UHGV virus genome: UHGV-0162383
Strand: one strand, 5' to 3'
Length of the DNA stretch: 34,947 bases
From: a virus
The translations under genes were made by a program, and so were the position numbers. Below are positions 3,524 through 27,350 of this stretch, piece after piece. Positions within the stretch are counted from its first letter, which is position 1, and every line of letters begins with the position of its first letter. Below the pieces are notes generated by a model. It saw only the letters and a program-made list of their open reading frames with translations. It did not search any database and was not told where the DNA came from.

Positions 3524-4120
3524 TCAATTTGAAACTATTGTACTTCTTATACAAGCAACCACTTCAATATCAGAAAATGCACATTCAAAGCTATTCTCTG
3601 TAGTTGTAATTTTAATCATACCTTTTGGAAGCTTTGTGATTTTTCGAATGGAATAGGTTCCGTCGATGTTGATTAACCAGTGTCCATCAAGTACTTCAGA
3701 AAATTTTTGATCACAAATGTATGTGACAAGCCCATCCTGAATAACAATTGGTGATGAAAGATTTGCAGGAAGAAATGATGAATCGAATACATATGAACCA
3801 TCTTCAATCATTTTGCCTGCGGTAAGGCGAAACTTGGGAAGCTCTTCTGTGGCTACTGTCAGCGAGCTTTGCTTAAGTCCTTGCCCGGTGGTTAACCATT
3901 TCAGTGAGGTTCCTGTTTCAAGAGCACATTGGATTATCCAGTCTGCAGGAAACGTATCCCGCAAATACCTGTTCGCCAGAGTGCTTTTTGATACTTCCAA
4001 GTGATCAGCTAAAGCCTGTCGTGTCGTAAAGCCATAAGCTTCGACTAATCGCTCAATCGCAGCCTTACCACCTTTATTGGGATTTATTTTGATCTCACTT
4101 GGGTACTTTGATGTTGACAT
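3524..4120 (-). CDS. cI: Phage immunity repressor, 186 CI-like (HTH N-terminal domain)
   Basis: 198 aa; N-terminal HTH-like segment (YGFTTRQALADHLEVSKSTLANRYLRD); position immediately after int and divergent from apl/cII-like genes, as in 186. Confidence 0.75.
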   Translation of the reverse strand: MSTSKYPSEIKINPNKGGKAAIERLVEAYGFTTRQALADHLEVSKSTLANRYLRDTFPADWIIQCALETGTSLKWLTTGQGLKQSSLTVATEELPKFRLTAGKMIEDGSYVFDSSFLPANLSSPIVIQDGLVTYICDQKFSEVLDGHWLINIDGTYSIRKITKLPKGMIKITTTENSFECAFSDIEVVACIRSTIVSN

Positions 4121-5793: not shown

Positions 5794-6020
5794 TGGCTGA
5801 TGCAATGGATCTCGTACAGCAGCGCGTTGAAGAAGAACGCCAGCGCCATATCCGTGCTGCCCGTGCCAAAACACCGGGCGTGTCTCGCGTGCTTTGCATT
5901 GAGTGTGAAGCGCCAATTCCGCCAGCACGCCGCCGTGCCATTCCGGGTGTGCAGCTTTGCATTACCTGCCAGGAAATTGCAGAGCTGAAAGGCAAACATT
6001 ACAACGGAGGTGCTGTATGA
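5793..6020 (+). CDS. TraR/DksA-family C4 zinc-finger protein
   Basis: 75 aa with CxxC...CxxC (CIECEAPIPPARRRAIPGVQLCITCQ), the TraR/DksA zinc-finger pattern common in P2-like early operons. Confidence 0.7.
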   Translation: MADAMDLVQQRVEEERQRHIRAARAKTPGVSRVLCIECEAPIPPARRRAIPGVQLCITCQEIAELKGKHYNGGAV

Positions 6021-6874
6021 GCACCATCCTGAAATGGGCGGGAAATAAAACCGCCATTATGTCCGAACTGAAAAAACACCTTCCTGCAGGCCCGCGACTG
6101 GTTGAACCTTTCGCGGGTTCCTGTGCTGTGATGATGGAGACGGATTATCCCTGCTATCTGGTTGCGGATATTAATCCTGATTTAATCAACCTCTATAAAA
6201 AGGTTGCCGCTGATTGTGAGGTGTTTATATCTCGTGCCAGAGCTTTATTTGAGGACGCAAACAGGGAGGTGACTTATTACAACATAAGACAGGAGTTTAA
6301 TTACTCAACTGAAATTACTGATTTCATGAAAGCGGTATATTTCCTGTATCTCAATCGTCACGGTTACCGTGGGTTATGTCGTTATAACAAGAGCGGGCAT
6401 TTCAACATTCCATACGGTAATTATAAAAATCCGTATTTCCCTGAAAAAGAAATTCGCGCATTTGCAGAGAAAGCCCAGCGAGCAACGTTTATCTGCGCCA
6501 GCTTTGATGAAACGCTGGCGATGCTGCAGGTGGGGGATGTGGTGTATTGCGATCCGCCTTATGACGGTACGTTTTCCGGCTATCACACTGACGGCTTCAC
6601 TGAAGATGACCAGTATCACCTGGCATCCGTTCTTGAACATCGGTCATCAGAAGGATATCCGGTCATTGTTTCTAACAGTGACACATCCCTGATCCGTTCG
6701 TTGTATCGCAATTTCACCCACCACTACATCAAAGCAAAACGCAGCATCGGTGTGGCAGCTGGTGAGAGTAAATCTGCAACAGAAATCATCGCTGTTTCCG
6801 GGCCGCGCTGCTGGGTAGGATTTGATCCTTCGCGTGGCGTGGATTGTTCCGTCGTGTACGGAGTGCGTGCATGA
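6017..6874 (+). CDS. dam: DNA adenine methyltransferase (Dam-like, N6-adenine MTase)
   Basis: N-terminal ILKWAGNK...PFAGSCAV (AdoMet-binding) and DPPY catalytic motif ([15 protein letters not shown]); ATG 6017 with GGAGG RBS, ATGA overlap with the upstream stop. Confidence 0.85.
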
Positions 6875-9285
6875 GCCATGCTGATATGAACAACTGCAGC
6901 GGCTTTAATGAGGTCGCCGCAGCATTCTCATGGAACAGCCCGAAAAAGGCCATTAACCCTTATCTGGACCCGGCGGAAGTTGCGCCGGTTTCTGCGCTTT
7001 CAAACCTGATCACTCTGTACGCTGCCGATAACGAGCAGGAACAACTGCGCCGCGAGGCACTGAGTGATCAGGTCTGGGAGCGTTATTTCTTTAATGAATC
7101 CCGTGATCCTGTCCAGCGCGAAATGGAGCAGGATAAGCTCATTAGCCGGGCAAAGCTGGCGCATGAGCAGCAGCGTTTTAATCCGGATATGGTCATTCTG
7201 GCGGACGTCAACGCCCAGCCTTCCCATATCAGCAAGCCGCTGATGCAACGTATTGAATACTTTAGCAGCCTGGGCAGGCCAAAGGCTTATTCCCGCTATT
7301 TACGTGAGACGATTAAGCCATGTCTGGAACGACTGGAGCATGTACGCGACAGCCAGCTATCTGCATCTTTTCGCTTTATGGCAAGCCATGAAGGGCTGGA
7401 CGGCCTGCTGATCCTGCCTGAAATGAGTCAGGATCAGGTGAAGCGCCTGTCTACCCTTGTCGCCGCGCATATGAGCATGTGCCTTGATGCAGCTTGTGGT
7501 GATTTGTATGCCACCGATGACGTTAAGCCAGAAGAAATCCGCAAGACATGGGAAAAGGTGGCAGCGGAAACCCTGCGTCTGGATGTCATCCCGCCTGCGT
7601 TTGAGCAACTCCGCCGGAAAAGAAACCGCCGTAAACCCGTGCCCTATGAACTCATTCCGGGTTCGCTGGCGCGTATGTTGTGCGCCGACTGGTGGTACCG
7701 GAAATTATGGAAGATGCGTTGCGAATGGCGGGAAGAGCAGTTGCGTGCTGTCTGCCTGGTCAGCAAAAAAGCATCTCCCTATGTCAGCTATGAAGCCGTG
7801 ATGCATAAACGTGAGCAGCGCCGTAAGTCGCTGGAGTTTTTTCGTTCTCATGAACTGGTGAACGAAGACGGCGACACGCTGGACATGGAGGATGTGGTAA
7901 ACGCCAGCAGCAGCAACCCTGCGCATCGCCGCAATGAGATGATGGCCTGTGTTAAAGGCCTGGAGCTTATCGCGGAAATGCGTGGTGACTGCGCCGTTTT
8001 CTACACCATTACCTGTCCGTCACGTTTCCATTCCACGCTCAATAACGGCAGACCAAACCCAACCTGGACAAATGCGACGGTAAGACAAAGCAGCGATTAT
8101 CTGGTCGGCATGTTTGCTGCATTTCGTAAGGCGATGCACAAAGCCGGGTTGCGCTGGTATGGCGTGCGGGTGGCTGAGCCGCATCATGACGGTACGGTTC
8201 ACTGGCACCTGTTGTGTTTCATGCGCAAAAAAGACCGCCGTGCCATTACTGCATTGTTGCGTAAGTTTGCCATCCGTGAAGACCGCGAGGAACTGGGTAA
8301 TAACACTGGTCCACGCTTTAAATCTGAGCTGATAAACCCGCGCAAAGGAACACCGACAAGCTACATCGCGAAATACATTAGTAAGAACATTGACGGGCGT
8401 GGTCTGGCTGGCGAGATCAGCAAGGAAACGGGTAAATCCCTGCGTGATAACGCTGAATACGTTAATGCCTGGGCGTCTCTGCATCGTGTTCAGCAATTCC
8501 GCTTCTTTGGTATTCCGGGGCGTCAGGCTTACCGTGAACTGCGATTGCTGGCTGGTCAGGCGGCAAGGCAACAGGGCGACAAAAAAGCAGGTGCGCCGGT
8601 ACTGGATAACCCGCGCCTTGATGCCATCCTGGCTGCTGCTGATGCTGGTTGTTTTGCCACTTACATCATGAAGCAGGGTGGTGTACTGGTTCCCCGCAAA
8701 TATCACCTCATCAGAACTGCTTATGAAATTAACGAAGAGCCGACCGCCTATGGCGATCACGGCATTCGTATTTATGGCATCTGGTCACCCATTGCAGAGG
8801 GCAAGATCTGCACTCATGCAGTGAAGTGGAAAATGGTTCGTAAAGCCGTTGACGTTCAGGAGGCGGTAGCCGACCAGGGCGCTTGCGCCCCTTGGACTCG
8901 TGGCAATAACTGTCCCCTTGCTGAAAATTTGTACCAACAAGGGAAAGACAAATCAGCTGATGGAGATACCAGAACGGATATCACCCGCATGGATGACAAG
9001 GAGTTGCACGATTACCTGCACAGTATGAGCAAAAAAGAGCGCCGGGAACTGGCTGCAAGGTTACGCCTGGTGAAACCGAAACGGCGTAAAGACTACAAAC
9101 AGCGAATTACAGACCATCAGCGACAGCAGCTCGTCTATGAACTGGAGTCCAGAGGATTTAATGGCAGCGAGAAAGAGGTCGATTTACTCCTTCGCGGCGG
9201 CAGTATTCCGTCAGGAGCAGGTCTGCGTATCTTCTATCGGAACCAGCGTTTGCAGGAAGATGATAAGTGGCGAAACCTGTATTAA
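6871..9285 (+). CDS. A: Replication initiation protein A (rolling-circle HUH endonuclease, P2 gpA family)
   Basis: About 804 aa; HUH motif ([13 protein letters not shown]) and downstream Tyr-containing segment ([10 protein letters not shown]); ATG 6871 overlaps the dam stop (ATGA); the six-frame ORF begins upstream at TTG 6844. Confidence 0.9.
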
Positions 9286-9379
9286 TTACGCGGGTTAACA
9301 ATTCGTGCTCTTAATAATACCAGGCATATCAGGCTGATGAACGTAAAAAAACGTTTTACATCAGTAAGATTATTATATA

Positions 9380-9395
9380 CTGTAAATATAAACAG
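9380..9395. promoter_or_regulatory. LexA (SOS) box CTGT-N8-ACAG: taCTGTaaatataaACAGtg
   Basis: Canonical CTGT-N8-ACAG with AT-rich spacer, about 45 bp upstream of the Tum-like/DinI-like gene pair. Confidence 0.65.
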
Positions 9396-9438
9396 TGGTT
9401 ATGTATACAGTATTGCTTGTGGTGTCATAGGAGGAAAG

Positions 9439-9627
9439 ATGCAGGACTATTTTTTGGAGTCTTTGAAGCTCCAGCGCATTGATTTTTTTCTTAAGCTTGT
9501 AGCGGCTAGTGAGTGTAGTGATGAAGAGAAGGGGCTGGCTTTGCAGTGGGTTTCTGAACTGACAGATGAACTCATGGCAAAAATCAGAAGCCACGAATAC
9601 AACCGCTCAATGGATGTCATCAGCTGA
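9439..9627 (+). CDS. Small protein downstream of the LexA box; candidate Tum-like SOS-inducible antirepressor
   Basis: 62 aa from ATG 9439 with AGGAGG RBS; position and LexA control match the 186 tum locus; no sequence-level confirmation. Confidence 0.4.
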   Translation: MQDYFLESLKLQRIDFFLKLVAASECSDEEKGLALQWVSELTDELMAKIRSHEYNRSMDVIS

Positions 9628-9637
9628 GGGGACTTTT

Positions 9638-9871
9638 ATGCGCATTGAAATAATGATCGATAAAGAGCAGAAGATTAGCCAGTCTACCCTGGACGCCCTT
9701 GAATCCGAGCTTTACCGCAATCTGCGCCCCCTGTATCCCAAAACGGTAATTCGTATCCGTAAAGGTAGCTCTAACGGTGTGGAACTGACCGGACTGCAAC
9801 TGGACGAAGAAAGGAAGCAAGTGATGAAAATTATGCAGAAGGTGTGGGAAGACGACAGCTGGCTGCATTAA
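9638..9871 (+). CDS. DinI-family protein
   Basis: 77 aa, MRIEIMIDKEQKISQSTLDALESELYRNL...VWEDDSWLH, resembling E. coli DinI in length and in N- and C-terminal motifs; immediately follows the Tum-like ORF under the same LexA box. Confidence 0.7.
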   Translation: MRIEIMIDKEQKISQSTLDALESELYRNLRPLYPKTVIRIRKGSSNGVELTGLQLDEERKQVMKIMQKVWEDDSWLH

Positions 9872-10141
9872 GAAACGTTGCTGGCGTCTGAACTTGCTTC
9901 TGGCGTCAGCAAGGTTGAACAACGAGCTGTGCGAGGCGTTAGTGTCAATTTGTTACCTTAACCACGATATATGCTAGGAAATTAACAGTTCTTAAGAAAC
10001 CGCTTGCATGATCGAGCGCATTGAACTTAAGTTTAAGTAACGAAATCAACAGATGATATTGTTGTCTAAATTTTAAAGATAATCTGTTGAGGTTGTAGGC
10101 GTCGGAGTGTAGACTTCCGCGCCATGTAAAAAGGGGGAGTT

Positions 10142-10357
10142 ATGTCAAGCATCGCCGCATTTAGCCTGGGTAACCCAGTTGAACGTCTGGCAAGGGTTCT
10201 TAAAGAGAACCAGGACAAACTCAATCTTAGTAAAGATGGTTTTGTGTCCGTAGACTTGTCTAACAAAAGAGCAATGGATGCCATCAAGGCACAGATGGAT
10301 AAGCTTGAAGGCATCAAAACGAGCACTGTAAAAGAGAAAACTAATAGAACCAGATAA
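10142..10357 (+). CDS. Small soluble charged protein; first gene of a two-gene cargo operon
   Basis: 71 aa; strong RBS AGGGGGAG before ATG 10142; stop overlaps the downstream start (TAATG); AT-rich. Confidence 0.45.
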   Translation: MSSIAAFSLGNPVERLARVLKENQDKLNLSKDGFVSVDLSNKRAMDAIKAQMDKLEGIKTSTVKEKTNRTR

Positions 10358-11199
10358 TGGCAACATTACTTTTAGCAGTGATTTTGGTTAGTGGTTTTAT
10401 TTATGTAAACCTATCACTTTCAACAAGATACCGATATAAGCGTTCCAACGGCTGGGACGCTTATTTTTTTGTGGCTGCCTGGGGTATTGTTTTTTTTCTC
10501 CTTGGCGGTTTTTTCACCTTTATTTTGAACGTCAGCGGAGGGTTTCGTTGGCTGGCTAATGCCTTGAATCTAACACCTGACAGTTTTAATGGCATGTTGT
10601 CTTCATCGAAAGACAAACTTCAAAGAATAAATGAAATCAAACAGATAGCATGGGTTATGATTTCAATTGTCCTCGCTGCGATTTCAGGTTTTGGAAATAA
10701 GTTACGCACATCACGTGGAGATCGTCGCTGGGATGCCTTAGCTAAAGCTGTGGGTAATAACGCTTTCGAATCATTACTCATGGAAGCGTCCGCAAGACAG
10801 TTTCCGATCATAGCAACTCTGTCGTCTCGCAAAATCTATGTTGGTCTTGTTACTTGTCCGGCGTTAGAAAACGGGCTTTCAGAGCACCTTGAACTTCTCC
10901 CGATGTTAAGCGGATATCGGGATAAAGATGATCTAACGATTAGTATCACGACTAACTATCACCAACATTATCTTGATAGTGGTGTGATAAGTGGAATGTC
11001 TCGGCTTAATATCGAAGATTTCCGTGTGCTCATACCAAAAGATGAGGTTGAAACAATTTCGTTTTTTGATACTGAGACATATAACAAATTTAAAGAAAAT
11101 GAAGCCAGGGATAGAAAGAGCTGTCGAAAGATTGGTAGTAAAAGTGCATCTTCGCGCAGCAAGCGTGCAGCAGATGCTGAGTCAAATGATCGTGCATGA
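10357..11199 (+). CDS. Integral membrane protein (about 3 TM helices) with cytoplasmic C-terminal domain; second gene of the cargo operon
   Basis: 280 aa; hydrophobic segments near residues 3-17, 35-57 and 97-112, then a soluble domain of roughly 130 aa and a basic Ser/Arg/Lys-rich tail; translationally coupled to the upstream ORF; followed by an intrinsic terminator. Confidence 0.5.
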   Translation: MATLLLAVILVSGFIYVNLSLSTRYRYKRSNGWDAYFFVAAWGIVFFLLGGFFTFILNVSGGFRWLANALNLTPDSFNGMLSSSKDKLQRINEIKQIAWVMISIVLAAISGFGNKLRTSRGDRRWDALAKAVGNNAFESLLMEASARQFPIIATLSSRKIYVGLVTCPALENGLSEHLELLPMLSGYRDKDDLTISITTNYHQHYLDSGVISGMSRLNIEDFRVLIPKDEVETISFFDTETYNKFKENEARDRKSCRKIGSKSASSRSKRAADAESNDRA

Positions 11200-11247
11200 C
11201 TATGCTGCATGAGATCGCATGATCGTTTGAGGATCGTTTTTGCTAAG

Positions 11248-11272
11248 GCCCGCCAGAACTGGCGGGCTTTTG
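11248..11272 (+). terminator. Rho-independent terminator (GCCCGCCAG..CTGGCGGGC + TTTTG)
   Basis: Perfect 9-nt inverted repeat with short loop followed by a T-run, about 50 bp after the stop of the membrane-protein gene. Confidence 0.7.
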
Positions 11273-11316
11273 CGTAGATCATGCACCTGCATGAAAACTA
11301 CTACATAAAGCGGGCA

Positions 11317-11335
11317 GGCGTGGCGGGGATACGAG
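11317..11335. other. Candidate cos (cohesive-end) site, GGCGTGGCGGGGA...
   Basis: GGCGTGGCGGGGA matches my recollection of the first 13 nt of the 19-nt cohesive ends of P2/186 (GGCG[A/T]GGCGGGGAAAGCA..); located between the A-side cargo and the portal-side cargo, where cos lies in this family. Confidence 0.4.
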
Positions 11336-11455
11336 CGCGCGCTAGAAACGTTTACTGATATTCTTGTAGTACATTGCATTTTTCTTTTTTTATGTCATAT
11401 CATTAGCCATTTGAATAGGACATTATTATCAATTTGTTGTCTCTGAGGATAAGTT

Positions 11456-13237
11456 ATGAATTTTGATGCAACACCACTAAATATAAAAAACATTCTATCT
11501 GTAAAACAAAGATATGTTATTCCACGTAATCAACGTGAGTTTAGTTGGGAAAAGCTTCAGCTTGAAGAATTATGGCAAGATATTGTCAGAAACATAAGGT
11601 TGAATGAAGATGGACAGAACTTGGAGTGTTCAGAATATTTTATAGGGACTATTGTTCTTTCTGGAGCAGATAGTGATGATGTATTAGAAGTGGTTGATGG
11701 ACAACAACGATTTTCAGTTATTACTATATTGCTTTCATTAATATCGCGTAAATTGCGTTCCTTAGGGCAAGATTCATTAGCGGATGATATATTTAAAACA
11801 TATATCGTTACTGTGAGTCCTACATTTAGCAGAAGCCAATTAGCTTCAAATGGTGAGACATTTATTGAAAAATTAGCAAAAAATAGCGATAGAACATATT
11901 TTAAGTTAAAATATCAAGATCGCGAAGAGCATCAAGTTGATGAATCTTGTGAAGAAGATGTACGTATAAGTTATGCAGGAATTTTTCTTTCTAGAAAACT
12001 AGGGAGGAAATCACTCTGTTCTGCATTGTTGCGAGATGGTGCAAAACATTATAATAACCAAGATTATATATTTTGTTTGACTGCTGTATATAGAATGATT
12101 ACCAATTATTTGAAGTTGGTAAAAATATCTGTAGGTAAGGAGGATGATGCTTATGATATTTTTGAAGTGTTGAATGCTCGAGGGATAAACTTAAGTTCAA
12201 TTGATTTGATAAAGAATAAAGTATTCCAAACTTGCACTCAAACATATCCGGTAGATATTGCAAAAACAAAATGGGATTATATCGTTACTCAAATTGAGTC
12301 TAGGGATAGTAATAGCACTATTGCTGATTATATTAGAACGTGGTGGCTTTCTAAGTATAATTATATTGGAGAAGATCAACTTTATCGTGCTTTTAAACGT
12401 GAGATTCAAGATGAGAATACTTTATTGTCATCAGCATCATTTCTGAACGAATTATATGATGATGTTGAATTATACTGTAAAATAATAGCGCCAAATACAG
12501 ATGACTGGCCTCAACCTGATCAGCGTGAAATTTACAACTCGTTAAAAGCATTCGAGATTTTTAATGTGAGTATTCCTCGACCATTTGTACTCTCATTACT
12601 TAGAAAACGTAAAGAGAAACCGAGAGCCCTTACACAATCAATGCTGATAGAATGTTTGAAGTCCTTAGAGTCATTTCACTTTAAGTTTAATGCAGTATGT
12701 CGTCTAAGACCATCTGGAATCGATGCAAAATATTCTGTATTAGCAGTAAGAATGAATAAGGCATTAAATAAAAGAGATGTTGAGGGTGTTATTAATGACG
12801 CATTAGATTATTTTACACAGAAAGGGCCTTCAGAAAATATATTCAAACAAGCATTTTCAAAGAATATTGTTTATACAAATAAAAAGTCTGGGCAAAGGAA
12901 GTTGATTGTTTATATTTTTGACAAATTGGAACGTATCAGACGAGGGACGCGAGAGTTAAAAATGGATATAGTTTCTTTGGAACACATATCATCTCAAAGC
13001 AAAACTAACGAGTCAGTCGTGGGTATGATTGGTAATTTACTACCACTCTGTTTTTCACTTAATGAAGATTGCAAAAATTATGAGTTGCACAAAAAAATAG
13101 AATCTTATAAAAAATCTGATTTAAAATTAGTTACAGAGTTTGTTAGTGAGTCAGAAGCAAGAGAACATAAATGGGATGATTCATTAATAAAAGAAAGAAC
13201 AGATAGCTTGGCGTTAGAAACGTTTGCTAAAATATAA
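11456..13237 (+). CDS. DUF262/DUF1524 two-domain protein, GmrSD-like (type IV restriction-like) nuclease; cargo gene
   Basis: 593 aa; N-terminal DUF262/ParB-like motifs (IPRNQREFSWE and VVDGQQRFSV), C-terminal His-Me-finger-like motifs (SLEHISSQS ... GNLLPLCFSLNEDCKN); strongly AT-rich; RBS GAGGA before ATG 11456. Confidence 0.6.
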   Translation: MNFDATPLNIKNILSVKQRYVIPRNQREFSWEKLQLEELWQDIVRNIRLNEDGQNLECSEYFIGTIVLSGADSDDVLEVVDGQQRFSVITILLSLISRKLRSLGQDSLADDIFKTYIVTVSPTFSRSQLASNGETFIEKLAKNSDRTYFKLKYQDREEHQVDESCEEDVRISYAGIFLSRKLGRKSLCSALLRDGAKHYNNQDYIFCLTAVYRMITNYLKLVKISVGKEDDAYDIFEVLNARGINLSSIDLIKNKVFQTCTQTYPVDIAKTKWDYIVTQIESRDSNSTIADYIRTWWLSKYNYIGEDQLYRAFKREIQDENTLLSSASFLNELYDDVELYCKIIAPNTDDWPQPDQREIYNSLKAFEIFNVSIPRPFVLSLLRKRKEKPRALTQSMLIECLKSLESFHFKFNAVCRLRPSGIDAKYSVLAVRMNKALNKRDVEGVINDALDYFTQKGPSENIFKQAFSKNIVYTNKKSGQRKLIVYIFDKLERIRRGTRELKMDIVSLEHISSQSKTNESVVGMIGNLLPLCFSLNEDCKNYELHKKIESYKKSDLKLVTEFVSESEAREHKWDDSLIKERTDSLALETFAKI

Positions 13238-13243
13238 GTTCAG

Positions 13244-13264
13244 TGGCAGGTATAGTACCTGCCA
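13244..13264. terminator. Bidirectional hairpin TGGCAGGTA-tag-TACCTGCCA between convergent genes
   Basis: Perfect 9-bp inverted repeat with 3-nt loop in the 36-bp gap between the stops of the GmrSD-like gene (+) and the portal gene (-), followed by a T-rich tract. Confidence 0.55.
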
Positions 13265-13273
13265 TTATTCAAT

Positions 13274-14311
13274 TTACATACACTCCACAGAGTATTCACT
13301 GAATGAGATGATGTTTTTTTTAGCCCATTCATTAAGTTGCAGAATATGTTTTTGAATTGGTAGTAACTCATTCATAACAAATACTTTCGCGGCCTTCTCC
13401 ACATCCCCAAAACCCCCAACATTATTAGGCATTATCCCCATCATTTGCGGCGGCACGCGGTGCGCAGCCATCATGTCATCACGGCTCACGTTTTTGATAT
13501 TCAGAAACTCATCCTTCGCTGCGACTTCTGACAACGGGATAATCTGAAGACCGTCTTTTTTACCATTAGGCGAGTACATAAACAGATTGCGGAAGTTACC
13601 TGGTCCTTTGGCGCTTTTCATCGCATTGCGAAGGTTGTTCACGTCCTCCTGGTTCTGCGCGGCATCGGTCATGTACATGATGAAGCCTGCATGACTGCCG
13701 TTAATGTAATACTTGCGGCGGAACAGCGTGGCGGACTCGTTGAGCAGGGCTGACGGAATGGCAGAAAGATAGCCGGGCAGACCATAGATCTCCTGATTTA
13801 TGTCCGGTTCCATCAGATGGAAAATGCTGCCTTTCGTGAACTGATACGGCTGCGTGGTCATGCCGTATTGCACAAACCAGTAGGTATCCAGGTCTAACCC
13901 GCGTCGGGTGTATTTTGCCAGCGCAGGTTCAAGGGCGATAACTTCACCGAAGCGGTTCGTGCGTTTCTCCAGATAGGCGTTACCAAATACCAGATAGTCC
14001 TGTACAAAACGCGAAAAAGCCTGTTGGCTGAGCAGCGGATGAGGGATATAGGTACTGGTCAGAATGTTGCACTTTACTGCAATCGGGGAACTGTGATGCA
14101 CGGCAGCGCGGAAGGTGCGCGCCAGTCCGTCAAAGCTGACGGGCGGCTCATACCAACGGTCCATCTGTACGCATTCCACATAGTCCAGTAATTCTCGGCG
14201 GTCCAGAACTGGAACGGGATCGCCGAAGCTGAATGCTTCGGCTGTAGTCTGGTTTTTATGCTGGATCTGATTCGTCGCCGCAGTGCGGTTTTTCTTACTC
14301 TTTCCCATCAA
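13274..14311 (-). CDS. Q: Portal (capsid vertex) protein, P2 gpQ family
   Basis: 345 aa; sequence (FSFGDPVPVLDRRELLDYVE...WYEPPVSFDGLAR...GNAYLE..) matches my recollection of P2 Q; adjacent to and co-oriented with the terminase. Confidence 0.9.
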   Translation of the reverse strand: MMGKSKKNRTAATNQIQHKNQTTAEAFSFGDPVPVLDRRELLDYVECVQMDRWYEPPVSFDGLARTFRAAVHHSSPIAVKCNILTSTYIPHPLLSQQAFSRFVQDYLVFGNAYLEKRTNRFGEVIALEPALAKYTRRGLDLDTYWFVQYGMTTQPYQFTKGSIFHLMEPDINQEIYGLPGYLSAIPSALLNESATLFRRKYYINGSHAGFIMYMTDAAQNQEDVNNLRNAMKSAKGPGNFRNLFMYSPNGKKDGLQIIPLSEVAAKDEFLNIKNVSRDDMMAAHRVPPQMMGIMPNNVGGFGDVEKAAKVFVMNELLPIQKHILQLNEWAKKNIISFSEYSVECM

Positions 14312-16074
14312 AAAATCTCCACAATATTGCTGGTATTGGCGGACTCGCCCTGCAGCGGTTCGTTAAACAGTGCGTGCATCGTTGCCCAGGCCAGATCGGC
14401 GTGGCTGGCTTCTTCGCTGCGGCTGGCTTCATAGGTCGGGCGGTTGCCGCTGGCGGTGGTGGCGCGACGGATTGCCATGAATGACTGCGCAATGTCGGTG
14501 TGCCCGGCGTCAAACTCCAGACGGCGGTGGCTGATAATGTCGTAGGCCTTGAGTACCAGGGCGTTTTTAACGTTGGGGTTGTAGACAAACTCCCGGACGG
14601 CTGGAAAAAACGCTTTCACGTTCTCGTAAACCCCGTGGCCGACACCTGTCGAGTCGATGCCGATGTAGGTCACGTTGTACTGTTCAGTCAGTTTTTTGAT
14701 GGCGTCAGCCTGGGCGCGGAAGTCCATCCCGCGCCACTGGTGACGCTCAAGAATGCGGAACTTACCGCCCGGCACGGCTGGCGGTGCCACCACCACGCAT
14801 CCGGCGCTGTCGCCGTTCTGCGTACCTTTTGCCGGGTCATAACCGATCCACACCTCGCGCCAGCCAAACGGGCGCAGGGCCAGTGCATGAAAGTCGGTCC
14901 AGACTTCCCAACTGTCCACCATGCACGCCTGCAGTTCGCTGAGCGGGAACACGGACGCGAGATCGTCCACAAACTCGCACATCAGCAGGTTCTGGTATTC
15001 GTCCGGGCTGTACTCCATGCGCAACTGGTCAAGGTCGAACAGGTTACAGCCGCCGCGCACCGCATCTTCCACGGTGACTATCTGGCGGTATTGCCCGTCT
15101 GCGCACAGCAGGCCGGGGGCCAGATTGCTGTGGGACAGGTCGATGTCCACCTTATCGGCTTTGTTGCGCCCACGGTTGAACAGCGCACCGGACCAGAACG
15201 GATAAGCACTGTGGGTCAGGCTGGATGGCGTGGAAAAATAGGTTTGTCGCCATTTTTTATGAATAGCCATACCGGAAGCCACTTTGCGCAGCTCCTGGAA
15301 TTTCGGTATCCAGAAATATTCATCCAGATACAGGTTGCCGTGGTAACTCTGGGCCGTGCGGGCATTGGTGCCGAGGAAGTAAAGCGTGGCCCCGTTAGGA
15401 AGCACCATCGGATCGCCTTTCAGCTCCACCTCGACTTCTTTGGCGAAGTCGATGATGTACTGCTTAAAGACGTGAGCCTGTGCCTTACTGGCAGAAAGGA
15501 AAATCTGGTTACGTCCGGTAAGCAGGGCGTCAATCAGGGCTTCACGGGCAAAGTAAAAGGTCGCGCCGATCTGGCGTGACTTCAGCAGGTTGCGGATGCG
15601 GTTGGTTTTTCCGGCTTCCCACCAGTGGCGCTGGTAGTTGAACATGGAGGAATGGAAAATTTCTTCCAGCTTCTCAATCTGTTCATCGGTGAAAACGTTC
15701 TTTTCCGGCTGACGGCGTGGGCCTTTGTTGCGGTTGGCGACGTTAGGGTTTAAGTCGGCTTCGTTGCCGCCATTGTTAAACTTGCCGATCCGCGCGTGGC
15801 GTTCCGACTGGCGCGCCAGCAGGTCAATCTCTTTGAAATCTTTCCCTTCTTTGTGCTCCTTCATAATGAGCTGGCAGTAGCGTGCGGCGGTGGTGAGCTG
15901 CATCTGATCCAGCGGCCCATAGTCACCCCACTTGTCGCGTTTTTTCCAGCTGTGAACGGTTGCAACTTTCTCGCCCAGCATTTCAGCAATGCGGGCTACG
16001 CGGTATCCCTGAAAGTACAGCAGCATGGCCTGCCGACGGGGATCGAGATCTGCGGGTGTCAGTGTGGTGTTCAT
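14308..16074 (-). CDS. P: Terminase large (ATPase) subunit, P2 gpP family
   Basis: 588 aa; N-terminus MNTTLTPADLDPRRQAMLLYFQGYRVARIAEMLGEKVATVHSWKKRDKW characteristic of P2 P; stop overlaps the Q start. Confidence 0.9.
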   Translation of the reverse strand: MNTTLTPADLDPRRQAMLLYFQGYRVARIAEMLGEKVATVHSWKKRDKWGDYGPLDQMQLTTAARYCQLIMKEHKEGKDFKEIDLLARQSERHARIGKFNNGGNEADLNPNVANRNKGPRRQPEKNVFTDEQIEKLEEIFHSSMFNYQRHWWEAGKTNRIRNLLKSRQIGATFYFAREALIDALLTGRNQIFLSASKAQAHVFKQYIIDFAKEVEVELKGDPMVLPNGATLYFLGTNARTAQSYHGNLYLDEYFWIPKFQELRKVASGMAIHKKWRQTYFSTPSSLTHSAYPFWSGALFNRGRNKADKVDIDLSHSNLAPGLLCADGQYRQIVTVEDAVRGGCNLFDLDQLRMEYSPDEYQNLLMCEFVDDLASVFPLSELQACMVDSWEVWTDFHALALRPFGWREVWIGYDPAKGTQNGDSAGCVVVAPPAVPGGKFRILERHQWRGMDFRAQADAIKKLTEQYNVTYIGIDSTGVGHGVYENVKAFFPAVREFVYNPNVKNALVLKAYDIISHRRLEFDAGHTDIAQSFMAIRRATTASGNRPTYEASRSEEASHADLAWATMHALFNEPLQGESANTSNIVEIF

Positions 16075-16120
16075 GGCACAAACCTACAGCCTTGAATGAA
16101 GGCTTTCCCCGCCTGCGGTT

Positions 16121-16138
16121 TGTGTGGTTGTCGGTACA
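16121..16138. promoter_or_regulatory. TGT-N12-ACA dyad (Ogr/Delta-type late-activator site) in the divergent P/O promoter region
   Basis: TGTgtggttgtcggtACA in the gap between the P start (16074, -) and O start (16217, +); centre about 87 bp upstream of the O ATG. Confidence 0.5.
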
Positions 16139-16216
16139 AATACCGCGCATTGTTTCACTGCCCCCATCACCGCAACCATAAGGCTCCAGTAAGTTTTTTC
16201 TAACGGAGCACGGCTC

Positions 16217-17050
16217 ATGACAGTGAAAGCAAAGCGTTTTCGCATCGGGGTGGAAGGTGCCACCACCGACGGACGCGAAATCCAGCGTGAATGGCTGGAA
16301 CAGATGGCAGCCAGCTACAACCCGGCGGTGTATACCGCGCTGATTAACCTTGAGCACATCAAGTCTTATCTGCCGGACAGCACCTTTAACCGTTACGGCA
16401 AGGTGACGGCGCTGTTTGCCGAAGAAATCACGGAAGGTCCGCTGGCAGGCAAGATGGCGCTGTATGCCGACGTTGAGCCAACGGAATCCCTGGTGGAGCT
16501 GGTGAAAAAAGGCCAGAAATTATTCACCTCTATGGAAGTCAGCCCGAAGTTCGCTGATACGGGCAAAGCCTACCTGGTCGGCCTGGCTGCCACTGATGAC
16601 CCTGCCAGTCTGGGTACGGAAATGCTGACATTCAGCGCCAGTGCAGCTCATAACCCGCTGGCAAACCGCAAGCAGAATCCTGCAAATCTCTTTACCGCTG
16701 CAGAGGAAACGGTGATCGAACTGGAAGAAATCCAGGATGACAAACCGTCCCTGTTTGCCCGTGTCACGGCGTTGTTTACCAAAAAAGAGCAGTCCGATGA
16801 CGCCCGGTTCGCTGATGTGCATAAGGCCGTGGAGCTGGTCGCCACTGAGCAGCAGAACCTGAGCGCACGCACCGAAAAATCCCTGTCTGAGCAGGAAGAA
16901 CGCCTGTCTGAGCTGGAGACTGCTCTGCAGGAGCAGCAAACCGCCTTTAACGAACTGGTGAATAAGCTGAGTCATGAAGACAGCCGCCAGGACTACCGCC
17001 AGCGTGCAACAGGCGGTAACGCCCCCGCTGACACTCTGACCAATTGCTGA
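16217..17050 (+). CDS. O: Capsid scaffolding protein, P2 gpO family
   Basis: 277 aa; conserved position between terminase and major capsid gene; acidic coiled-coil C-terminal half typical of scaffold proteins. Confidence 0.8.
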   Translation: MTVKAKRFRIGVEGATTDGREIQREWLEQMAASYNPAVYTALINLEHIKSYLPDSTFNRYGKVTALFAEEITEGPLAGKMALYADVEPTESLVELVKKGQKLFTSMEVSPKFADTGKAYLVGLAATDDPASLGTEMLTFSASAAHNPLANRKQNPANLFTAAEETVIELEEIQDDKPSLFARVTALFTKKEQSDDARFADVHKAVELVATEQQNLSARTEKSLSEQEERLSELETALQEQQTAFNELVNKLSHEDSRQDYRQRATGGNAPADTLTNC

Positions 17051-17066
17051 TGGAGCACAAAACCTG

Positions 17067-18125
17067 ATGAAGAAGAATACCCGCTTTGCTTTTAACGCTT
17101 ACCTGCAGCAGCTGGCGCGTCTGAACGGTGTGGCAGTTGAAGAACTGTCCAGCAAGTTCACCGTGGAGCCGTCTGTACAGCAGACGCTGGAAGACCAGAT
17201 CCAGCAGTCTGCCGCTTTCCTGACGCTGATTAACGTCACGCCAGTGACTGAGCAGTCCGGTCAGCTGCTGGGGTTGGGTGTTGGTAGCACCATTGCCGGA
17301 ACCACTGACACCACCGCGAAAGAGCGTGAACCTGTCGATCCTACGCTGATGGTCGATGTGGAATACAAATGCGAGCAGACCAACTTTGACACGGTACTGA
17401 CCTACGCGAAGCTGGACCTGTGGGCGAAGTTTCAGGATTTCCAGGTGCGTATCCGTGACGCCATCGTGAAACGTCAGGCACTGGACCGCATCATGATCGG
17501 CTTTAACGGCGTGAAGCGTGCGAAAACCTCCAACCGTAGCGAAAACCCGCTGCTGCAGGATGTGAACAAAGGCTGGCTGCAGAAAATCCGTGAGGATGCA
17601 CCGGATCATGTCATGGGCAGCACCACCACGGGCGGTGAAACCACACCGGGCGCGGTGAAAGTCGGGAAAGGTGGCGAATATGCCAACCTGGACGCCGTGG
17701 TGATGGATGCCGTCAATGAGCTTATCGACGTGGTCTACCAGGACGATGACGATCTGGTGGTGATTTGCGGCCGTGAACTGCTGTCTGACAAGTATTTCCC
17801 GCTTGTCAACAAAGAGCAGGAAAACAGTGAAAAACTGGCTGCCGATATGATCATCAGTCAGAAGCGCATGGGGGGCCTGCAGGCCGTGCGTGCGCCGTTT
17901 TTCCCGCCGAATGCGCTGCTGATCACCCGTCTGGATAACCTGTCCATCTACTGGCAGGAAGACACCCGCCGCCGTTCAGTTATCGACAACCCGAAACGTG
18001 ACCGGATTGAAAACTTTGAATCCGTTAACGAAGCCTATGTGGTTGAGGACTACCGCTGCGCAGCACTGGTGGAAAACATCCAGATTGGCGACTTCAGCGC
18101 CGTCGCAGTAGAAACCGGAGCGTAA
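17067..18125 (+). CDS. N: Major capsid protein, P2 gpN family
   Basis: 352 aa; N-terminal region (RFAFNAYLQQLARLNGV...KFTVEPSVQQTL...) matches my recollection of P2 N. Confidence 0.9.
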   Translation: MKKNTRFAFNAYLQQLARLNGVAVEELSSKFTVEPSVQQTLEDQIQQSAAFLTLINVTPVTEQSGQLLGLGVGSTIAGTTDTTAKEREPVDPTLMVDVEYKCEQTNFDTVLTYAKLDLWAKFQDFQVRIRDAIVKRQALDRIMIGFNGVKRAKTSNRSENPLLQDVNKGWLQKIREDAPDHVMGSTTTGGETTPGAVKVGKGGEYANLDAVVMDAVNELIDVVYQDDDDLVVICGRELLSDKYFPLVNKEQENSEKLAADMIISQKRMGGLQAVRAPFFPPNALLITRLDNLSIYWQEDTRRRSVIDNPKRDRIENFESVNEAYVVEDYRCAALVENIQIGDFSAVAVETGA

Positions 18126-18128
18126 TCC

Positions 18129-18779
18129 ATGAGCCTGAGTCCCGCACGGCAGCATCGCCTGCGCGTTCAGGCTGAACAGGCCGCTCGCGAGGGTGGCAGT
18201 GTTCGCCACGCGTCGGGCTATGACCTGATGCTGCTGCAACTGGCGGAAGACCGCCGCCGTCTCAAGGGCGTTCAGTCCACGGTCAAAAAAGCGGAAATCA
18301 AGGTGGAACTGCTGCCGAAATACGCCGCCTGGGCAGAGGGTGTCCTGGCTGGCGGAGGCGCGCAACAGGATGACGTGCTGATGTACGTGATGCTGTGGCG
18401 CATTGATGCCGGAGATTATGCCGGGGCGCTGGAGATCGGGCGTCACGCCCTGCGTCATGGCTGGGTGATGCCGTTGGGTAACCGCAACGTGCAGACCGTG
18501 CTGGCAGAGGAAATGGCAGACGCGGCGCAGAGCGCAATGCTTGCCGCCACCGGCTTTGATGCTGATCTGTTGCTGCAGACGCTGGAGCTGACAGACGGTC
18601 TGGATATGCCGGACCAGTCACGGGCACGTCTGCATAAAGCGATTGGCGCTGTCCTGAGTGAAAGCAATCCGGCTTCCGCCCTTAATCATCTCAACCATGC
18701 GTTACAGCTCGATCCCCGCTGTGGCGTGAAAAAAGACAAACAGCAGCTGGAGCGCAGACTGCGCAATGACAGCCGCTGA
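18129..18779 (+). CDS. M: Terminase small (endonuclease) subunit, P2 gpM family
   Basis: 216 aa; position immediately after the major capsid gene as in P2. Confidence 0.8.
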   Translation: MSLSPARQHRLRVQAEQAAREGGSVRHASGYDLMLLQLAEDRRRLKGVQSTVKKAEIKVELLPKYAAWAEGVLAGGGAQQDDVLMYVMLWRIDAGDYAGALEIGRHALRHGWVMPLGNRNVQTVLAEEMADAAQSAMLAATGFDADLLLQTLELTDGLDMPDQSRARLHKAIGAVLSESNPASALNHLNHALQLDPRCGVKKDKQQLERRLRNDSR

Positions 18780-18874
18780 CAGAACGTGCCCCCGCGCACG
18801 GGCGGCACGGGGTGGCGAAAGGCACTGCCACATCAAAACCCCGTCCACCGCCCTTTATTTCAGGAGAAAGCAGC

Positions 18875-19339
18875 ATGAAGTTTGTTGCGCCAGAACAGGC
18901 ACCGGAACAGGCGGGAATCATCAGAAATACGCCGTTCTGGCCTGATGTGGACCTGTCGGAGTTTCGCAGTGTGATGCGCACTGACGGCACGGTGACGCAG
19001 CCGCGTTTAAAACAGGTTGCCCTGTCGGCAATTTCGGAGGTCAACGCAGAGCTGTATGAGTTTCGCAGACGCCAGCAGATGCTGGGATATGCCTCGCTGG
19101 CAGAGGTTCCGGCAGAACAGCTGGATGGGAAAAGTGAGCGCATTCAGCACTATTTCAACGCGGTTTACTGCTGGGCACGCGCCATGCTCAACGAACGTTA
19201 CCAGGACTATGACGCCACGGCATCCGGTGTGAAGCGGGGCGAGGAACTGGCGGAAGCCAGCGGTGATTTATGGCGTGACGCCCGCTGGGCCATCAGCCGG
19301 GTACAGGATGCGCCGCACTGCACTGTGGAGCTTATCTGA
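18875..19339 (+). CDS. L: Head completion/stabilisation protein, P2 gpL family
   Basis: 154 aa from ATG 18875 (AGGAGA RBS); synteny with P2 L. Confidence 0.75.
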   Translation: MKFVAPEQAPEQAGIIRNTPFWPDVDLSEFRSVMRTDGTVTQPRLKQVALSAISEVNAELYEFRRRQQMLGYASLAEVPAEQLDGKSERIQHYFNAVYCWARAMLNERYQDYDATASGVKRGEELAEASGDLWRDARWAISRVQDAPHCTVELI

Positions 19340-19542
19340 TGAAAGTGCGTGCGCATCAGTATGACACGGTGGACGCGCTTTGCTGGCGTCATTACGGGCG
19401 CACGCAGGGTGTCACGGAGCAGGTACTGAAGGCAAATCCGGGGCTTGCCGAATACGGCCCCTTTTTACCTCACGGGCTGCAGGTGGAGCTGCCGGACATT
19501 CCGACAACCACCACCGTGCAGACCGTCCAGCTATGGGACTGA
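19339..19542 (+). CDS. X: Tail protein X (P2 gpX family, LysM-like)
   Basis: 67 aa; ATGA overlap with the L stop; synteny. Confidence 0.7.
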   Translation: MKVRAHQYDTVDALCWRHYGRTQGVTEQVLKANPGLAEYGPFLPHGLQVELPDIPTTTTVQTVQLWD

Positions 19543-19545
19543 ATT

Positions 19546-19761
19546 ATGACGCTTGAGCGAATCAGCGCCTTTATCACGTATTGCATCGCCGTCGTGCTGG
19601 CCTGGCTGGGCGATTTGTCCATCAAGGATGCCTCAACGCTGGGCGGCCTGATGATCGGTGTGCTGATGCTGGCTATCAACTGGTACTACAAACACAAAGC
19701 CTACCAGCTTCTGCGCGACGGGCAGATCACGCGGGAGGACTATGAATCCATCAATCGTTAA
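19546..19761 (+). CDS. Holin
   Basis: 71 aa with one or two hydrophobic helices and a charged C-terminus; directly upstream of the endolysin. Confidence 0.55.
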   Translation: MTLERISAFITYCIAVVLAWLGDLSIKDASTLGGLMIGVLMLAINWYYKHKAYQLLRDGQITREDYESINR

Positions 19762-20254
19762 ACGCTGCCTTGTCGGGGTCGTGCTGGCTATTGCTGCCAC
19801 GCTGCCGGGTTTTCAGCAGCTTCACACCTCCGTGGAGGGACTGAAACTGATTGCCGATTACGAAGGCTGTCGTCTGCAGCCGTATCAGTGCAGCGCGGGT
19901 GTCTGGACCGACGGCATTGGTAATACATCGGGCGTCATTCCCGGCAAAACAATCACGGAACGACAGGCAGCAGAAGGGCTGATCTCCAACGTGCTGCGTG
20001 TGGAGCGGGCACTGGAAAGGTGTGTGAAGCAACAGCCACCACAGAAGGTGTATGACGCTACGGTGTCGTTTGCCTTCAACGTGGGGACGGGCAATGCCTG
20101 TAGTTCCACGCTGGTGAAATTGCTCAATCAGCGGCGCTGGGCGGATGCGTGCCGACAGTTGCCGCGCTGGGTTTATGTAAAAGGTGTGTTTAATCAGGGG
20201 CTGGATAACCGCCGTGCGCGGGAGATGGCCTGGTGTTTACAGGGAGCAAACTGA
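19742..20254 (+). CDS. Endolysin (phage lysozyme) with N-terminal signal-anchor-like hydrophobic segment
   Basis: 170 aa; hydrophobic N-terminus (CLVGVVLAIAATLPGF) followed by a lysozyme-like segment (EGLKLIADYEGCRLQPYQC..GVWTDGIGNT). Confidence 0.8.
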   Translation: MNPSIVKRCLVGVVLAIAATLPGFQQLHTSVEGLKLIADYEGCRLQPYQCSAGVWTDGIGNTSGVIPGKTITERQAAEGLISNVLRVERALERCVKQQPPQKVYDATVSFAFNVGTGNACSSTLVKLLNQRRWADACRQLPRWVYVKGVFNQGLDNRRAREMAWCLQGAN

Positions 20255-20256
20255 AA

Positions 20257-20633
20257 TGAAAAAGAAATTAATCAGCGGACTGCTTCTGATGTTATGGATG
20301 GCGCTGTTAATCGCAGCAATGGTGTATCCGCAGGGGATCTTTCCGGTACTGGCAGCGTCCGGCGTTTGGGTAGCCTGTTTGCTGACATGGGCGGTAATTC
20401 CGGTAGCACTGGCTGCGTTAATTCAGAATGGCCCGCTCTGGCAGGAGTTAAGGGCATCTTTGCTGAAGACAATTACCCGAAAAGAATACGTATTTATCAG
20501 TTGGGTGATGCGATTGCTGATTGTTGTAAGTCTCGCATGGACGGGGTGGGCTATTACCCAGGTCTTTTATCTACTGACCGTTATTGCCTTCTGGATCACC
20601 CGTAATCAGATGGCGCAACAGGTAGCAGCATGA
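20257..20633 (+). CDS. lysA: LysA-like membrane protein (lysis timing)
   Basis: 125 aa, multiple hydrophobic helices; position after the endolysin as P2 lysA. Confidence 0.5.
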
Positions 20634-21058
20634 ACCGGTTGCTGCTGGTTGTGCTGGCGTTATTACTAGCGGCGCTGGGCTGGCAGACGTGGCGGCTGGC
20701 TGATGCCAGCCAGACCATCAGCACGCAGGCAAACGAGCTGCAGAGCAAAAGCCAGGCACTGGCAAAGAGCAACAGCCAGCTTATCAGCCTGTCCATTCTG
20801 ACTGAAACCAATAACCGGGAGCAGGCGCGGCTCTATGCCGAAGCAGAACAGACCAGCGCACAGCTGAGACAACGACAACGCCGGATCGAGGAACTGAAAC
20901 GTGAGAACGAGGATTTACGCCACTGGGCTGATACTCCTTTGCCTGCTGACATTATCCGGCTGCGGGAACGTCCGGCACTCACCGGAGGTACGGCTTACCG
21001 TCAGTGGTTGTCCGCGAGTGACGCCGTGTCGGCTGGATCAGGCAACGCCGCGCACTAA
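20630..21058 (+). CDS. lysB: LysB, Rz-like inner-membrane spanin
   Basis: 142 aa; N-terminal TM helix then coiled-coil/charged periplasmic domain; ATGA overlap with lysA. Confidence 0.6.
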   Translation: MNRLLLVVLALLLAALGWQTWRLADASQTISTQANELQSKSQALAKSNSQLISLSILTETNNREQARLYAEAEQTSAQLRQRQRRIEELKRENEDLRHWADTPLPADIIRLRERPALTGGTAYRQWLSASDAVSAGSGNAAH

Positions 21059-21191
21059 TGGAGATCTGAACGCGTTGCTGGATGAAACGGAGGCTGCCTG
21101 GGCGGTCTGTGCAGACAAAGTGGACATGATTATTGCGTGTCAGGAGCGAAACAGTGAACAAACCACAATCCCTGCGCCACGCCCTCAATAA
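20901..21191 (+). CDS. lysC: LysC, Rz1-like outer-membrane lipoprotein spanin, overlapping the lysB 3' end in another frame
   Basis: 96 aa; lipobox LTLSGC after a hydrophobic signal peptide; Pro-rich mature region; embedded/overlapping arrangement typical of Rz/Rz1. Confidence 0.6.
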   Translation: MRTRIYATGLILLCLLTLSGCGNVRHSPEVRLTVSGCPRVTPCRLDQATPRTNGDLNALLDETEAAWAVCADKVDMIIACQERNSEQTTIPAPRPQ

Positions 21192-21585
21192 AGCGGTGCC
21201 TTATGTCCGCAATAACCCGGACAAACTGCATCTGTTTGTGGATAACGGTTCGCTGGTTGCCACGGGGGCCAGCTCCATGTCGTGGGAGTACCGTTACACC
21301 CTGAACGCGGTGATTGAGGATTTCAGCGGCGACCAGAATCTGCTGATGGCCCCGGTTTTGCTGTGGCTGAGGGATAACCAGCCCGATGCCATCAATAACC
21401 CGGCGTTACGGGAAAAACTATTCACCTTTGAGGTGGATATTCTGCGCAACGATGTCTGTGATATCAGCCTGAACCTGCAACTGACGGAGCGTGTGCTGGT
21501 CAGCACTGACGGCAGTGTGTCGAGCGTTGAAGCTGTAGCGGAACCTGATGAACCTGAAGAAATGTGGACGGTGAAACGTGGCTGA
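21154..21585 (+). CDS. R: Tail completion protein R (P2 gpR family)
   Basis: GTG 21154 with AGGAG 7 nt upstream; motifs LFVDNGS...YRYTLN...PVLLWLRDNQPD match my recollection of P2 R; the six-frame ORF begins at 21133. Confidence 0.75.
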   Translation: MNKPQSLRHALNKAVPYVRNNPDKLHLFVDNGSLVATGASSMSWEYRYTLNAVIEDFSGDQNLLMAPVLLWLRDNQPDAINNPALREKLFTFEVDILRNDVCDISLNLQLTERVLVSTDGSVSSVEAVAEPDEPEEMWTVKRG

Positions 21586-22024
21586 ACTGCAGAAAGTGGA
21601 CGACTGGCTGAGTGCCTTGCTGGCGAATCTGGAACCAGCCGCAAGAAGCCGCATGATGCGCCAGCTGGCGCAGGAACTGCGCCGGACACAGCAGCAGAAT
21701 ATCAGAATGCAGCGCAATCCAGATGGCAGCAGTTATGAACCTCGACGGGTAACAGCACGCAGTAAAAAGGGGCGCATCAAACGTCAGATGTTTGCAAAGC
21801 TGCGCACCACAAAATACCTGAAAACTGCCGCCAGCGCCGACTCTGCCAGCGTACAGTTTGAAGGCAAGGTGCAGCGTATTGCCCGTGTTCACCATTACGG
21901 CCTGCGTGATCGCGTCAGTCGCAAAGGACCGGAGGTCCGTTACGCAGAGCGCCGCCTGCTGGGTGTAAATGATGATGTTGAGGCAATGACCCGCGACATG
22001 ATTCTGCAATGGCTGGCGGGGTGA
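21578..22024 (+). CDS. S: Tail completion protein S (P2 gpS family)
   Basis: 148 aa; overlaps the R stop; synteny. Confidence 0.7.
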   Translation: MAELQKVDDWLSALLANLEPAARSRMMRQLAQELRRTQQQNIRMQRNPDGSSYEPRRVTARSKKGRIKRQMFAKLRTTKYLKTAASADSASVQFEGKVQRIARVHHYGLRDRVSRKGPEVRYAERRLLGVNDDVEAMTRDMILQWLAG

Positions 22025-22028
22025 TCTT

Positions 22029-22046
22029 TGTATCAGCACTGATACA
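22029..22046. promoter_or_regulatory. TGT-N12-ACA dyad (late-activator site) upstream of V
   Basis: Near-perfect palindrome TGTATCAGCACTGATACA in the S-V intergenic region; matches the conserved late-promoter element of P2-like phages. Confidence 0.5.
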
Positions 22047-22092
22047 AGTTGCAGCACTGCCGCCTTTCTTCCCCTGATGGCAACCTTTCCCT

Positions 22093-27282: not shown

Positions 27283-27350
27283 ACGTTTATGAAAATGCAG
27301 AGATAACGGCTAACTGGCATCATCTCCGGTTTTTATTCAGGGGAATGATC

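Follow-up and report, generated by a model that had tools for sequence, protein, structure and literature searches.

What is a gene for a nuclease doing directly beside the cos site of a P2/186-like prophage, and what would its product recognize? This question is raised by the viral genome UHGV-0162383, a stretch of 34,947 nucleotides (here called the window) which is itself a P2/186-like prophage. Its 593-codon gene at 11456-13237 (+ strand), encoding a GmrSD-like protein with a DUF262 domain, a helical linker and a DUF1524 domain, lies between the cos-type site and the portal gene. Our reading, to which we assign a probability of roughly 0.6, is that this gene encodes a stand-alone defence nuclease of the GmrSD family, that it is carried as exchangeable cargo behind cos, and that the enzyme is modification-dependent. 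The components of this reading differ in strength: membership of the GmrSD family, a defence function and carriage as hotspot cargo are, taken together, very probable, and a dependence on modified DNA appears, judging by the family, moderately probable.

A protein of the GmrSD family

The open reading frame (ORF) begins with an ATG, preceded by a GAGGA ribosome-binding site 7 nt upstream, and its product is identical (100%) to RefSeq WP_001008289.1 and to an annotated coding sequence of Escherichia coli J3. With the composition of the ORF (32% GC, a probability of 0.086 that a codon is a stop), a run of 593 codons without a stop would arise by chance with a probability of ~7e-24. The first-pass annotation of this DNA, which was made from the sequence alone, had read here a 593-residue protein with the motifs IPRNQREFSW, DGQQR, EHISSQS, GNLLPL and a following Asn, had assigned it to DUF262/DUF1524, and had proposed a Pfam search as a check. 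All of these motifs are present where it had located them, and the Pfam search supports the assignment, with GmrSD_N/DUF262 (PF03235) matching at E = 2.1e-32 (113 bits vs a cut-off of 33.2; residues 10-257, the whole profile being covered) and GmrSD_C/DUF1524 (PF07510) at E = 1.1e-11 (45 bits vs a cut-off of 23). The gene is also as AT-rich as that annotation had remarked, with a GC content of 0.321 vs 0.563 for the structural genes (13400-25000). The domain order is established: a ParB/Srx-like DUF262 domain with DGQQR, a helical linker, and a DUF1524 His-Me finger.

A protein database search retrieved 890 homologues, all of them with both domains and with lengths of ~575-600 residues. Conservation was assessed in an alignment of 37 homologues sharing 36-82% identity, and the residues invariant in all 37 were M1, R24, Q26, R27, S30, W31, the D81-G-Q-Q-R85 stretch, E509, H510, N527 and N536. 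Five of these (R24, Q26, R27, S30 and W31) fall within the ParB-like N-terminal motif IPRNQREFSW (residues 22-31, 11519-11548, + strand), which was placed by the motif check, the homologue alignment and the alignment with DndI and SspE. DGQQR (residues 81-85, 11696-11710, + strand) is the predicted site of nucleoside triphosphate (NTP) binding and hydrolysis of the DUF262 domain. The catalytic core of the His-Me finger, a strand-strand-helix element, extends over 12980-13063 (+ strand), with E509-H510 at 12980-12985, N527 at 13034-13036 and N536 at 13061-13063; EHISSQS corresponds to residues 509-515 (12980-13000), GNLLPL to residues 526-531 (13031-13048), and N536 lies within SLNEDCKN. According to Machnicka et al. 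(2015), DGQQR together with E/D-H-N-N constitutes the GmrSD signature, which the protein matches through its DGQQR and through E509, H510, N527 and N536.

The AlphaFold2 model (mean predicted local distance difference test score, pLDDT, of 86) has strands at 506-510 and 528-532 and a helix at 533-539. As modelled, E509-H510 would lie on the first strand, N527 ahead of the second and N536 on the next helix, which is the arrangement of a beta-beta-alpha-metal fold. All 11 significant Foldseek matches of this model in the PDB are DndI, SspE or BrxU, with E-values of 3e-17 for DndI (9JFL; TM-score 0.61), 5e-15 for SspE and 8e-06 for BrxU. Searching the PDB by sequence yields the same ranking, with DndI (9JFL) on top at E = 9e-12 and 18% identity. 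The protein combines a DUF262 domain, DGQQR, a DUF1524 domain with E/D-H-N-N and the overall fold of the GmrSD family, and is a member of it; it is also covered by PHROG 21165, whose function is unknown.

An exchangeable cargo between cos and the portal gene

The left border of the gene's neighbourhood is a cos-type 19-mer, GGCGTGGCGGGGATACGAG (11317-11335, + strand), the predicted cohesive-end sequence, which was identified by eye, by comparison with the annotated cosL/cosR of P2 and the cos of 186, and by the point at which homology breaks off. The counterparts are GGCGAGGCGGGGAAAGCAC for P2 cosL and GGCGTGGCGGGGAAAGCAT for 186 cos, and the flanks (aagcgggc before, GCGCGC after) are common to all. 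The 19-mer matches 186 cos over its first 13 bases, differs from P2 at 5 of 19 positions, and is identical in L009, one of the sister loci compared; a search of the window for the 19-nt cos of P2, allowing 3 mismatches, returned nothing. A cos-like site before the gene had been part of the first-pass annotation, and the comparison with P2, 186 and other E. coli prophages agrees both with this site and with the placing of the gene as left-end cargo between cos and the portal gene. The nuclease gene starts 120 bp past the 19-mer and, by this comparison, no gene precedes it on the left arm of the packaged genome as predicted.

The right border is the portal gene Q (13274-14311, - strand), a homologue of P2 gpQ recognized by Pfam Phage_portal (4.6e-16) and by the portal annotation in J3. 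The stops of the nuclease gene and Q face each other across an inverted repeat with an 11-bp stem (13242-13266), detected by folding energy (+ strand, -16.2 kcal/mol, z = -5.5; - strand, -14.0 kcal/mol, z = -4.5) and followed by weak U-tracts, which is possibly a bidirectional terminator. The gene had been described as flanked by such a terminator; what stands there is a single hairpin with weak U-tracts, on the downstream side only. A second, stronger hairpin with a U-tract, GGCCCGCCAG-aact-CTGGCGGGC-UUUUG (~11245-11276, + strand; -23.4 kcal/mol, z = -5.0), likely terminates the rightward operon before cos. The interval from cosL to the portal stop comprises ~165 non-coding bp in P2 and 186, including the terminator tQ/tW, vs 1.9 kb in the window.

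This position is a published one. Rousset et al. (2022) described the cos-proximal interval between gpA and gpQ in P2-like prophages as a defence hotspot, for which 1,650 gene arrangements exist in E. coli, and a 2026 study in Nucleic Acids Research confirms the P2 hotspot and stresses its rapid swapping. The nuclease gene lies between gpA (6844-9285, an ORF assigned from the annotated replication endonuclease of sister prophages) and Q, beside cos, and so in the hotspot. WP_001008289 itself is listed as 'DUF262/DUF1524' in supplementary file 6 of Rousset et al. (2022), where an example of an arrangement is 'hypothetical + DinI + hypothetical + DUF262/DUF1524'. The placement is accordingly not unusual, the identical protein being already listed in this hotspot. 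No sign of experimental testing of WP_001008289 was found in that supplementary table, and a literature search for the accession in main texts returned nothing, the table being its only occurrence. The locus shares with the P2 tin/old locus and the gpA-gpQ hotspot of both studies its bounding genes, its adjacency to cos and its AT-rich, swappable cargo. The cargo of P2 itself (orf91, tin and old) stands before cos, whereas the nuclease gene stands after it; both papers take the hotspot as a single interval.

The distribution of the gene is that of a cargo. Around cos, a conserved island of ~150 bp (11192-11346) stands between two variable slots and shares 89-98% identity with the sister loci L001 and L005-L009 and with ~1,270 E. 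coli genomes; it occurs in 1,274 of the 5,426 complete E. coli genomes, and the homology to them ends at 11341-11346, just beyond cos. The nuclease allele (at least 99% identity) is found in 50 genomes, always adjoining the portal gene, and a second allele (~70% DNA and 69% protein identity), which occupies the same P2-like slot, in 18 further E. coli genomes. Among five sister prophages the content of the interval differs between flanks that are 89-99% identical: the slot behind cos holds two hypothetical genes in strain A30, one hypothetical gene in strain 22AR0322, an ABC-three-component system in strain AR_0085 and a TIGR02391-family protein in strain CFT073. In the deposited-phage collection the DNA matches are confined to the cos island and no close homologue of the nuclease was found, the sole records being two from Listeria at 23% identity; this leaves prophages as the only known carriers of the gene.

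The boundaries of these modules were drawn by pairwise BLAST of the window (9200-14400) against six sister loci, so that the pattern rests on seven loci. The conserved backbone reaches up to 9942. A small conserved ORF (phrog_698; 9337-9627, + strand) and a DinI-like protein (9566-9871, + strand; Pfam 1.3e-22) follow gpA and belong to the backbone in all sister prophages, and the variable region therefore starts only at 9943. Slot 1, before cos, spans 9943-11191. Slot 2, behind cos (11347-13363; GC 0.32), comprises an AT-rich leader, the nuclease gene, the hairpin and the final ~30 codons of Q; from 11342/11346 to 13364-13401 there is no homology to L005-L008, after which the backbone resumes. 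The two slots assort independently, since A30 shares slot 1 and not slot 2, J3 shares slot 2 and not slot 1, and in L009 slot 1 is empty.

The right junction of slot 2 thus falls within the portal gene Q, whose final ~30 codons (13274-13363) have a GC content of 0.28-0.38 and differ in sequence among prophages with different cargo (L005, L006, L008 and L009 were compared), and the same stretch of Q in the cargo-less P2 and 186 has 0.51-0.56 GC. It seems that every cargo brings along an AT-rich portal C-terminus of its own. The cargo-specific portal tail and the junction within Q point to recombination anchored in cos and Q, and are consistent with an exchange of cargo by homologous recombination at cos and the 3' end of Q.

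Slot 1 of the window is occupied by an overlapping pair of ORFs of 71 residues (10142-10357, + strand) and 280 residues (10357-11199, + strand), the latter with a hydrophobic N-terminal half that looks membrane-spanning, as judged by eye from the translation. The pair matches phrog_9843 and phrog_3630, both of unknown function, and has no match in Pfam, PADLOC or NCBIfam. It is common to A30, a similarly arranged pair is present in CFT073, and J3 and L009 are without it. This pair is a candidate for an uncharacterized defence or exclusion pair.

Beyond the P2-like prophages, a homologue with 45% identity is found on IncF plasmids, one with 38% in the nin region of Klebsiella lambdoid prophages, and one with 54% on 5,640-bp plasmids of K. 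pneumoniae (H113-H119, e.g., NZ_CP079731.1), in which the annotated genes under the match are only a replication initiator and the homologue. These 5.6-kb plasmids look like a minimal 'defence plasmid'. As the gene is solitary in P2-like and lambdoid prophages and on IncF plasmids, and is the sole cargo of the 5.6-kb plasmids, the genomic evidence indicates that it works without a partner.

What the nuclease would recognize

The GmrSD-like relative with the best PADLOC match is HEC-06, whose models cover the protein over its full length (PDLC04154, 7.4e-75, residues 3-587; PDLC04157, 2.7e-73; PDLC04155, 2.6e-65). The second-best PADLOC family is 'Orf5' (5.8e-66), a label not traceable to any described system, and the SspE models match only part of the protein, including its N-terminal domain. 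HEC-06 is a validated single-gene defence from E. coli, abolished by Q79A/R80A in DGQQR and by E471A/H472A in EHICP (10.1101/2024.01.29.577857), and it is reported to block T4. It comes from E. coli MOD1-EC1687 (WP_096851903; Payne et al., 2024 preprint) and resembles our protein in its single-chain DUF262-linker-DUF1524 architecture, in DGQQR and an EH-type His-Me motif (EHICP in HEC-06, EHISS here), and in standing alone. However, HEC-06 is embedded in an Hma system, whereas the gene studied here is prophage cargo.

The prototype type IV enzymes acting on glucosylated 5-hydroxymethylcytosine DNA, EcoCT596 GmrSD and Eco94GmrSD, have the same two Pfam domains and the same E/D-H-N-N motif, are prophage-borne, so that carriage by prophages goes back to the founding members of the family, and presumably exclude T-even phages. 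Contrary to the nuclease gene, which adjoins cos, their genes lie beside tail-fibre genes, and the clade is a distinct one. BrxU (PDB 7P9K), a type IV enzyme embedded in BREX, belongs to the same family and fold and has DGQQR and the D/E-H nuclease motif. The differences are ~11% identity in the structural alignment, a whole-chain TM-score of ~0.33, and the absence of a BREX setting for the nuclease gene. The nucleotide-binding motif described for BrxU is RLFDS; the N-terminal motif of our protein reads IPRNQREFSW.

The most economical reading is that the nuclease would cleave incoming phage DNA carrying base modifications foreign to the host, such as the hydroxymethyl- or glucosyl-hydroxymethylcytosine of T-even phages. 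By analogy with Eco94GmrSD, BrxU, HEC-06, SspE and DndI it probably acts as a dimer. Its DUF262 domain would bind and hydrolyse NTP and in this way control both conformation and the binding of DNA, and nicking or cleavage would fall to the His-Me finger. Ordinary Dam/Dcm-methylated E. coli DNA would have to be spared, because the gene sits alone without partner modification genes, and its movement on its own among ordinary hosts would likewise favour a type IV-like, modification-dependent enzyme. Restriction would protect the lysogen and thereby the prophage, the expression of the gene in the lysogen being assumed. The first-pass annotation had called the protein a type IV defence nuclease; the GmrSD-like family and a probable anti-phage use hold, whereas the modification dependence follows from family membership by inference.

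Several observations weigh against this reading. The PADLOC model of the canonical type IV GmrSD enzymes, mREase_IV, matches weakly, in two short stretches (2.2e-14), and because its coverage is limited to these the nuclease is placed, by sequence, outside the canonical EcoCT/Eco94 clade. NCBIfam contains no specific model for the protein. The identity to the experimentally tested HEC-06 is 24% (E = 1e-27) across the ~420 N-terminal residues that align with the 399 residues of HEC-06 compared. At this level homology and mechanism would carry over from HEC-06, and specificity would not, as the proteins are too distant. The closest solved relatives in both sequence and fold are DndI and SspE, sensors of phosphorothioate (PT) marks that attack unmodified DNA. 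Finally, no sigma-70-like promoter was found at the scan threshold in the 110 bp between cos and the start codon.

The remoteness of the clade leaves some room for a GmrSD-like nuclease with a trigger other than a modification, such as a phage protein or a replication intermediate, that is, for an abortive-infection or modification-independent effector. The distances to the enzymes of known substrate (24% to HEC-06, 18% to DndI, weak mREase_IV matches) and the richness of the P2 hotspot in abortive-infection systems speak for such an effector. However, the GmrSD-like enzymes whose specificity has been determined recognize chemical marks on DNA, be it PT or a modified base, and the conserved NTPase and His-Me motifs fit a mark-reading mechanism, which makes this alternative rather improbable. 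In the same low range we place a proposal with two separate parts. As no GmrSD-like enzyme of known specificity stands close to this clade, its members may read a DNA mark or trigger new to the family (a purine or deazaguanine modification, or a non-modification signal); and, separately, cargo may be swapped in two slots around the cos island together with the portal tail.

The solved structures suggest a different sense of recognition. DndI and SspE read PT marks on host DNA and attack DNA that lacks them, and a protein of this type would attack PT-free phage DNA and rely on dnd or ssp genes of the host in order to spare, or be activated by, the chromosome. DndI (PDB 9JFL) and SspE (6JIV/7DRR) have the same domain order and are the closest entries by sequence and by fold, and the PADLOC SspE matches include the N-terminal domain. 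However, these enzymes work with dnd or ssp modification operons, and neither dnd (dndBCDE) nor ssp (sspABCD) genes are present in the window, nor do any flank the homologues in other phages or plasmids, including the 5.6-kb plasmids with only the replication gene and the homologue. In addition, the tyrosine that senses PT (Y25 in DndI, Y30 in SspE; PMC11662687) is replaced in the sequence alignment by Asn25, even though the family is mixed at this position (N in 19, F in 11 and Y in 7 of the 37 homologues). DndI is also toxic to cells without PT, a property that would keep a prophage from passing between ordinary E. coli strains. We therefore consider a PT reader very unlikely, and prefer a modification-dependent enzyme.

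A non-defence role, as an HNH endonuclease aiding cos cleavage or packaging in the manner of the HNH proteins next to HK97-like terminase genes, or as a selfish homing nuclease, is suggested by the position directly beside cos and the portal and terminase genes, but is highly improbable and, for packaging, was rejected, since P2 and 186 package normally with ~165 bp of non-coding DNA in this place, the gene occurs in only 50-68 of ~1,270 related prophages while the others carry unrelated cargo, homologues occur in non-packaging contexts (plasmids, nin regions), and the base composition is foreign to the phage backbone.

The rest of the prophage and the place of the nuclease in its family

The remaining landmarks of the prophage comprise an integrase (691-1743, - strand), a CI repressor (3524-4120, - strand) and a large terminase (14308-16074, - strand), with the capsid and tail genes beyond it. 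A D12-class N6-adenine (Dam-type) methyltransferase (5957-6874, + strand) stands just upstream of gpA and overlaps it. The nuclease had been proposed to complement this phage Dam methylase; the pairing is unsupported and was rejected, as the methylase belongs to the backbone and is present in sister prophages with every cargo type examined.

Between integrase and CI repressor, an island of 35-40% GC encodes a 558-residue protein (1827-3503, - strand) that matches PADLOC PD-Lambda-1 (2.6e-119) and Pfam DUF4041 and T5orf172/MUG113. With it, the prophage carries a second known defence gene, located in a different, minor hotspot. The tail-fibre region (24517-27917, GC 0.44-0.51) contains a fibre gene (24517-25938), an assembly protein (25935-26354), an oppositely oriented glycine-rich ORF (26589-27323, - strand) and a Hin/Gin-type serine invertase (27345-27917, + strand), and has the look of an invertible switch of host range. 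Tail-fibre and invertase genes of this kind neighbour the prototype GmrSD of CT596.

The enzyme family, its defence role, its carriage by prophages and this exact hotspot have already been published, and the identical protein is present both in RefSeq and in the hotspot table, so that the gene raises no new question and is an ordinary example of its kind. It adds an uncharacterized clade to the inventory of prophage-borne, stand-alone GmrSD-like nucleases, and its cloning could widen the known substrate range of type IV-like enzymes. Both phage therapy and the counter-defence of T-even phages by their Ip proteins depend on which of these variants a strain carries.

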